Sequence record: NC_007825.1
Strand: one strand, 5' to 3'
Length of the DNA: 5,538 bases
From: Escherichia phage ID52
Shown: positions 1,985-2,520 of the stretch, in pieces
Position numbering within the stretch: the stretch's first letter is position 1
Layout of the letters: every line of letters starts with the position of its first letter
Notes under the pieces: generated by a model
What the model was told of the DNA's origin: nothing
Seen by the model: only the letters and a program-made list of their open reading frames with translations
Databases searched by the model: none
Made by a program: the position numbers and the translations under genes

Positions 1985-2443
1985 ATGTCTAAATCAAATG
2001 AGTCTGCTGTAGCTTTTCAAACTGCTATTGCTTCTATCAAGCTTATCCAAGCCTCTTCCGTTCTCGACTTGACCGAAGATGACTTCGACTTTTTAACTCG
2101 CGACCGTGTATGGATTGCTACCGACCGCTCACGTGCTCGCCGTGCTATCGAGGCCTGTGTATATGGAACGCTGGACTTTGTCGGGTATCCTCGCTTTCCT
2201 GCTCCTGTTGAGTTTATTGCTGCCGTCATTGCTTATTATGTTCATCCCGTCAACATTCAGACGGCCTGTCTTATCATGGAAGGTGCAGAGTTTACCGAAA
2301 ACATCGTTAATGGTGTCGAACGCCCTGTTAAGGCCTCCGAATTGTTCGCCTTTACTCTTCTCGTTCGTGCCGGAAACAAAGACCTTATTGGTCATGCCGA
2401 AACAAACATCCGTGAACAATTACGCGCTCAAGGAGTTATGTAA
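1985..2443 (+). CDS. D: External scaffolding protein D
   Basis: ATG 1985 preceded by AAGGA (1973-1977); 152 aa: MSKSNESAVAFQTAIASIKLIQAS...VYGTLDFVGYPRFPAPVEFIAAVIAYYVHPVNIQTACLIMEGAEFTEN..., near-identical over long stretches to recalled phiX174 protein D (152 aa). Confidence 0.95.
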   Translation: MSKSNESAVAFQTAIASIKLIQASSVLDLTEDDFDFLTRDRVWIATDRSRARRAIEACVYGTLDFVGYPRFPAPVEFIAAVIAYYVHPVNIQTACLIMEGAEFTENIVNGVERPVKASELFAFTLLVRAGNKDLIGHAETNIREQLRAQGVM

Positions 2444-2474
2444 TGAAAAAATCAATTCGCCGCTCCGGCGGTAA
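2163..2474 (+). CDS. E: Lysis protein E (MraY-inhibiting single-gene lysis protein, overprinted in D)
   Basis: ATG 2163 in a frame different from D; N-terminus MERWTLSGILAFLLLLSLLLPSLLIMFIPSTF matches the conserved transmembrane domain of phiX174 E. The frame stays open to TAA 2472-2474 (103 aa), past the D stop and into J. Confidence 0.8.
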   Translation: MERWTLSGILAFLLLLSLLLPSLLIMFIPSTFRRPVLSWKVQSLPKTSLMVSNALLRPPNCSPLLFSFVPETKTLLVMPKQTSVNNYALKELCNEKINSPLRR

Positions 2475-2520
2475 ATCTAAAGGTGCTCGCCTCTGGTATG
2501 TAGGCGGAACGCAATACTAA
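2443..2520 (+). CDS. J: DNA-binding/packaging protein J (small basic protein)
   Basis: ATG 2443 overlapping the D stop (TAATG), preceded by AGGAG (2431-2435); 25 aa: MKKSIRRSGGKSKGARLWYVGGTQY, highly basic. Matches my recollection of G4 J (25 aa) rather than the 38-aa phiX174 J. Confidence 0.9.
   Translation: MKKSIRRSGGKSKGARLWYVGGTQY

Follow-up and report, generated by a model that had tools for sequence, protein, structure and literature searches.

Organization of the D/E/J junction in phage ID52

The window analysed here is the whole 5,538-nt DNA of Escherichia phage ID52 (species Gequatrovirus ID52; NC_007825.1), a microvirus of the G4 group. The sequence and the list of open reading frames (ORFs) gave the usual Microvirus gene order, with D at 1985–2443, E at 2163–2474, J at 2443–2520 and F from 2561 onwards. 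The features of the D/E/J junction are listed below.

1985–2443, plus strand: gene D, external scaffolding protein, 152 aa (ORF; Pfam PF02925, 276.7 bits; stop TAA at 2441–2443)
2163–2474, plus strand: lysis gene E, 103 aa (ORF inside D in a second frame, running on into J; Pfam PF04517)
2181–2249, plus strand: E residues 7–29, N-terminal transmembrane helix including Pro21 (TMHMM prediction in PMC9311611)
2265–2384, plus strand: E residues 35–74, Pfam Microvir_lysis segment (profile match)
2430–2435, plus strand: AAGGAG, Shine-Dalgarno-like sequence for J, 7 nt before the ATG (read from the sequence)
2436–2438, plus strand: E codon 92, TTA (Leu), site of the lost stop (alignment and translations)
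2436–2471, plus strand: C-terminal extension of E, LCNEKINSPLRR, 12 residues relative to the 91-aa E of phiX174, ID2 and ID18
2441–2445, plus strand: TAATG, overlap of D stop and J start, with base 2443 read in three frames (sequence)
2443–2520, plus strand: gene J, DNA-binding core protein, 25 aa (ORF; Pfam PF04726, 60.8 bits, cutoff 30)
2443–2474, plus strand: stretch coding for both E and J, 32 nt
2472–2474, plus strand: TAA stop of E, made up of the final T of J codon 10 (GGT) and the initial AA of codon 11 (AAA)
2478–2480, plus strand: another in-frame TAA, two codons further on, as back-up E stop (absent in ID12, WA6 and NC10)

D, E and J are read in three different frames. The E frame is open from 2106 to 2474 and, counted from the ATG at 2163, which lies inside D in another frame as in microvirus lysis genes E, it encodes 103 aa up to the TAA at 2472–2474. 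Sequence and ORF list thus agree with the first-pass annotation, made from the letters alone, which had E open to this TAA and overlapping J by 32 nt. That annotation had equated the overlap with the first ten codons of J; codons 1–10 are covered, but two bases of codon 11 belong to it as well. J nucleotides 1–29 are covered by E sense codons and nucleotides 30–32 by the E stop. Nucleotide 2443, said to be used by all three genes, was confirmed as position 3 of the D stop, position 2 of E codon 94 (AAT) and position 1 of the J ATG. This triple use is not unusual in kind, because the A/B/K and A/K/C junctions, textbook features of phiX174 and G4, are a standard microvirus arrangement; they resemble D/E/J in having one base in three frames at a stop/start overlap and differ in the genes involved. 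Further three-frame bases of ID52 lie in TGATG at 1636–1640 (base 1638), with the B stop and the K start inside A, and in ATGA at 1720–1723, with the C start and the A stop inside K.

The AAGGAG sequence at 2430–2435 also provides E codons 90–91 (Lys-Glu) and part of D codons 149–150. It is kept directly 5′ of J in the aligned relatives, with the exceptions of WA2, WA3, ID8 and alpha3. J was assigned from its profile match and its site between D and F, and its protein is identical to J of G4. Upstream of D, inside gene C, a sigma-70 promoter-like sequence (TTGACA, 18 nt, TATTAT; 11/12 near-consensus) was seen at 1907–1936, the position at which, we presume, the gene D promoter lies in phiX174-type phages.

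A single silent base in gene D accounts for the longer E

In phiX174, E ends shortly before D does (E 568–843; D ends at 848), as the first-pass annotation had stated. Alignment showed that the penultimate codon of D (Val151) is GTG or GTA in phiX174, ID2, ID18 and WA14, and that the phiX-like E stop consists of bases 2 and 3 of this codon and the A of the final Met codon of D, GTG-A giving TGA and GTA-A giving TAA. The E frame reads AAG GAG TGA in phiX174, ID18 and WA14, and AAG GAG TAA in ID2. In ID52, Val151 is GTT (2435–2437), which is silent in D, and E codon 92 is therefore TTA, not TGA or TAA; base 2437, the third of the Val codon, makes the difference. Phages of the ID52 type have GAG-TTA at this place, and those of the G4 and WA2 types GTG-TYA. 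Since the stop is lost, reading crosses the D TAA and the J ATG to the next in-frame TAA, in J codons 10–11. Past codon 92, E reads TGT AAT GAA AAA ATC AAT TCG CCG CTC CGG CGG, then TAA, and 10 of the 12 extension codons plus the stop overlap J.

During translation, the GTT of D would thus be read in E as Leu (TTA, 2436–2438) in place of a stop, ribosomes on E would pass the D TAA and the J ATG in the third frame and halt at 2472–2474, and the product would be an E of 103 aa with 12 new residues at its C-terminus. A single base, silent in D, accounts for the extension of E. The length of the read-on, 11 sense codons, is unremarkable and not beyond chance: on the plus strand of ID52, 44% of the intervals from one in-frame stop to the next contain 11 or more sense codons. 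Should the present stop be lost, the back-up TAA would let E grow by only two residues in most genomes.

E of ID52 is an annotated and experimentally studied lysis protein

E scored 55 bits against Pfam PF04517 (Microvir_lysis; cutoff 25), the match covering residues 35–74 only, and phmmer matched it to PDB chain 8G02_B, lysis protein E of phiX174 (E = 3.8e-28). Its N-terminal transmembrane segment LAFLLLLSLLLPSLLIMFIPSTF, with Pro at position 21, is identical to that of phiX174 E. The phiX174 protein (91 aa) also belongs to the same family and has the same frame relation to the overprinted D, but its TGA lies 5 nt before the D end, it does not overlap J, and its identity over the aligned length is 55%. 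We counted 57 identical residues of 103 (55.34%) and differences at 34 of the 91 shared positions. The published ID52-E is 103 aa long and 55.34% identical to phiX174 E (PMC9311611), and the agreement of the computed with the printed value supports identity with that protein.

In an exact-protein look-up of nine proteins (B, C, D, E, J, K, F, G and H), 9/9 matched entries listed under ID52. E is YP_512455.1/AAZ49034.1 (gpE of ID52), and AAZ49363.1 (gpE of NC6) has the same sequence; the AAZ accessions belong to a batch (AAZ49xxx) deposited together with other G4-group isolates. These isolates reportedly stem from Rokyta et al., J Bacteriol, 2006. The D protein matched gpD of ID52 and of other G4-group phages exactly, while gpB, gpC, gpF, gpG and gpH were found in ID52 only. 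Gene C of ID52 (1720–1983; annotated gpC, YP_512453.1) encodes 87 aa versus 84, with a 9-nt insertion and local substitutions at 1950–1968, and the C-terminus of the protein is altered (15 residues, letters not shown) compared with ...STSSTDANHKGN in NC6; the insertion was seen in 0/17 other aligned G4-group genomes.

Expressed from plasmids, the 103-aa ID52-E was lytic and gave a Western blot signal in the membrane fraction (PMC9311611). It lyses E. coli and Salmonella (PMC9311611, PMC11126076), and lysis is abolished by overexpression of mraY as well as by the exchange P21A (PMC11126076). A block of MraY as the route of ID52-E lysis is taken here as reported in this literature on the same protein. 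The nearest solved structures are the MraY–E–SlyD complexes 8G02 (phiX174 E) and 8G01, and only E residues 1–65 are modelled in 8G02 (bioRxiv 10.64898/2026.07.25.740675). The first-pass statement that only the transmembrane domain of E is required goes back to a classical fusion result and is not supported as put, the resolved part of E in 8G02 reaching well past the membrane helix. Its description of the extension as C-terminal relative to phiX174 E was borne out: residues 92–103 lie beyond the Pfam segment and beyond the part resolved in 8G02.

The best DNA matches to 1900–2700 in the searchable phage collection, in which the ID52 DNA record itself is not included, were Shigella phage vB_1081 (96.9%) and NC6 (96.6%); over 2100–2600, vB_1081 is 99.0% identical to ID52. 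Both carry the ID52-type junction and an identical 103-aa E, and vB_1081 is an independent sewage isolate from China. In GenBank, gpE of NC6 is annotated at 2154–2465 and J at 2434–2511, which gives the same 32-nt overlap and no difference from ID52. ID12, WA6, NC10 and G4_WWN are annotated with the same E coordinates and J start (2434), and WA2, WA3 and ID8 with E at 2154–2471 and a J start at 2440. The vB_1081 record (PV477269) lists six genes only; E, J, K, B and A* are missing from it, despite intact ORFs for E and J, an instance of overprinted genes escaping automatic annotation.

The extension might have been an artefact, either of a sequencing or assembly error near 2437–2474 or of an annotation convention without a real protein behind it, and we give this reading practically no credence. 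A sequencing error, which had been named at the outset as a possible source of the long frame, is excluded because the junction and the E sequence are the same in NC6 and vB_1081; moreover, the same frame and stop recur in ten independently sequenced phages. An annotation convention is countered by the lysis and the membrane-fraction signal obtained with the 103-aa ORF (PMC9311611). The artefact reading is effectively refuted. The 103-aa E and its overlap with J are already known from annotation, expression and mutagenesis and are not new.

The position of the E stop is labile among relatives

From GenBank annotations and our own translations, four arrangements of E were defined in Gequatrovirus.

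E of 91 aa (ID2, ID18, WA14): ends inside D
E of 103 aa (ID52, NC6, vB_1081, ID12, WA6, NC10, G4_WWN): ends 32 nt into J
E of 105 aa (WA2, WA3, ID8): ends 32 nt into J, D and J lying 6 nt further apart
E of 96 aa (G4, ID11, WA5, NC2, NC13, NC19, ID41): ends in a 43-nt D–J spacer, 10 nt after the D stop

Among 17 distinct phages of the G4/ID52 group, ten have an E/J overlap with the same stop and the remaining seven, G4 included, have the 43-nt D–J insert and an E of 96 aa. The first-pass annotation had rated the extension as notable unless an alignment of E stops proved it ordinary for the clade; with the alignment made, and the extended stop shared by 10/17 phages and already studied in ID52 (PMC9311611, PMC11126076), it is largely ordinary. 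The ID12, WA6, NC10 and G4_WWN proteins (103 aa) and those of WA2, WA3 and ID8 (105 aa) show the same stop loss, the same TAA and the same 32-nt overlap, but their tails end in WW compared with RR in ID52, and they are 80–90% identical or less. The 105-aa proteins further differ by the 6-nt D–J insertion, KYY replacing N. In G4 and ID11 the ancestral stop has likewise been lost and E passes the D stop, but the TGA of the spacer, 10 nt after the D stop, ends E short of J.

Outside this group, alpha3-like phages have an E of 75–76 aa that ends 50–53 nt before the D end. The lengths other than 103 found in relatives were 75–76, 91, 95, 96 and 105 aa, and these varied ends indicate that the position of the E stop is labile across the subfamily. 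The 95-aa case is an unannotated E-frame ORF at 362–649 of Escherichia phage Lilleput (MK629525, unclassified), which ends 7 nt beyond the D stop and reaches 8 nt into J. In its membrane segment, LAFLLLLSLFLLLSLTTF, Leu takes the place of Pro21, which is present in all other E proteins and reported to be essential for ID52-E lysis (PMC11126076).

Metagenomic collections were scanned for G4-type J starts (ATGAARAARTCNATHCGNCGNTCNGGNGGNAA); only G4 itself was found in IMG/VR and none in the JGI metagenomes. Scanning IMG/VR with the D protein yielded 12 loci, one of them G4-type, and the exact look-up of the D protein returned only NCBI records already in the set, mostly ID11 laboratory isolates.

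The overlap is probably the older state in the G4 group

The D–J spacer is absent from all outgroups. Neighbour-joining trees of a 1.4-kb region, rooted on ID18/WA14, placed ID52/NC6/vB_1081 first and then WA6/NC10/ID12, so that overlap-type genomes were basal and paraphyletic. The spacer of G4 (2421–2480) is flanked by a 17-nt direct repeat, AAGGTGTCATGTAAAGA and AAGGAGTTATGTAATGA, whose copies are 43 nt apart and 82% identical. The second copy is the same as the D-end/J-start junction of ID52 (2430–2446), including the AAGGAG ribosome-binding sequence of J, which in G4-type genomes thus belongs to this second copy. Elsewhere in the G4 genome, the 29-nt core of the spacer does not recur. Because the outgroups lack the spacer, the overlap types are basal and paraphyletic and the spacer has this repeat structure, we infer, with moderate rather than firm confidence, that the overlap came first in the G4 group. 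The G4 spacer is probably derived, a later insertion with a duplicated junction that parted D from J. Such an insertion would have given E a new, earlier stop, shortening it from 103 to 96 aa and removing the overlap. Trees of the upstream and downstream flanks disagreed in detail, which indicates recombination and blurs the inference of the ancestral state.

In the J–F intergenic region of ID52, positions 2527–2542 hold a GC-rich hairpin with a tetraloop of the UNCG type (GGGGGC-UACG-GCCCCC), similar to that of phiX174 and ID2 (GGGGC-UUCG-GCCCC), whereas the G4, WA2 and G4_WWN types have a different hairpin, GTGGGACCGCGGTCCCAC. Which hairpin allele a genome has does not follow its type of D/J junction, and this suggests a mosaic history.

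J shows no detectable constraint from the E frame

The overlap had been expected to add a dual-coding constraint to the basic N-terminus of J. The J protein was identical in 18/18 G4-group genomes, whether E overlaps it or not, and all variable J nucleotides were third codon positions. In the ten overlap genomes, 2/32 overlapped and 5/43 downstream J positions were variable (Fisher p = 0.69); in eight spacer-type sequences, in which E ends short of J, the figures were 2/32 and 4/43 (Fisher p = 1.0). An extra constraint on J from the E frame was thus not detectable in this comparison of ten overlap with eight spacer sequences, the power of which is low, and the expectation was not upheld.

These data also bear on the idea that the overlap matters for J, either through a coding constraint on its N-terminus or through ribosomes terminating on E that tune J translation. 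The Shine-Dalgarno sequence and start codon of J do lie inside the E frame, and there are fewer variable sites in J nucleotides 1–32 than in 33–75 (2 versus 5). The same 2/32 is found, however, where there is no overlap, neither Fisher test separates the two parts of J, and the J protein is invariant in both groups. In phiX174, E is translated at a very low level compared with J, so effects of ribosome traffic should be small. We therefore consider a role of the overlap for J very unlikely.

The dependence between the two frames appears to run the other way. The two variable sites in the overlap are silent in J, with TCT GGT in most genomes and TCC GGC in ID52, NC6 and vB_1081, and this exchange switches the last two E residues between Trp-Trp and Arg-Arg, a radical change. 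Because the J protein is invariant while the end of E switches between WW and RR, the tail sequence is apparently dictated by J, with E following. As RNA, the T-to-C changes that turn WW into RR (2459–2472) strengthen a small hairpin from −5.4 to −9.2 kcal/mol. RNA structure was discarded as the reason for the two changes, since the 66-nt context folded no better than shuffled sequence (z = 0.43), and the stronger hairpin is probably a coincidence.

One observation on the stop itself points, weakly, in the opposite direction. J codon 10 is GGT, which makes the E stop, in 10/10 overlap genomes compared with 3/7 spacer phages, the other 4/7 having GGC (Fisher p ~0.015, uncorrected). This excess of GGT could hint that the position of the stop is maintained; shared ancestry could equally explain it.

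The E tail is most likely a tolerated by-product

Most of what was found agrees with the first-pass view that the extension is tolerated rather than functional. E ends after 91, 95, 96, 103 or 105 aa in the different relatives, and the tip of the tail switches between RR and WW. Since J is invariant, Trp switches to Arg twice, the exchange C93S inside the extension has a minimal effect on lysis (PMC11126076) and the length of E varies, we regard the tail, with high though not complete confidence, as a by-product that is tolerated and not selected. This reading draws on comparative data from few independent lineages, with six J haplotypes among the ten overlap genomes.

Alternatively, the 12 residues might be a selected, functional part of E that confers stability without SlyD or a higher potency than that of phiX174 E. 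ID52-E is indeed reported to lyse cells better than phiX174 E while present in smaller amounts (PMC9311611), its lysis persists in slyD and dnaJ knockouts (PMC11126076), and the authors suspect the C-terminal region, in which the two proteins differ, behind both the potency and the lysis of slyD knockouts (PMC9311611, PMC11126076). The stop is also at the same position in 10/10 overlap genomes. On the other hand, with 34 of 91 shared positions differing from phiX174 E, the tail is one of many candidate causes. Its last two residues are swapped by changes that are silent in J, its Cys93 can be replaced with little effect, it lies outside the Pfam-conserved segment and the resolved part of 8G02, and sister phages with an E of 96, 91 or 75–76 aa are viable. 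A selected function of these residues is hence improbable in our view. The broader proposal, that either the tail or the termination of E inside J is functional, in SlyD independence and potency or in tuning J synthesis, with selection holding the stop at codons 10–11, we think quite improbable as well.

A tolerated tail, read out of J after the loss of the old stop, is the interpretation we prefer. The E/J overlap is the common state in the G4 group, to which the ID52 junction conforms, and J shows no measurable cost of being read in two frames. The E protein of ID52 is already in use for making bacterial ghosts. On a small scale, the junction illustrates cleanly how overprinted genes gain and lose length by stop loss and by insertions and deletions.
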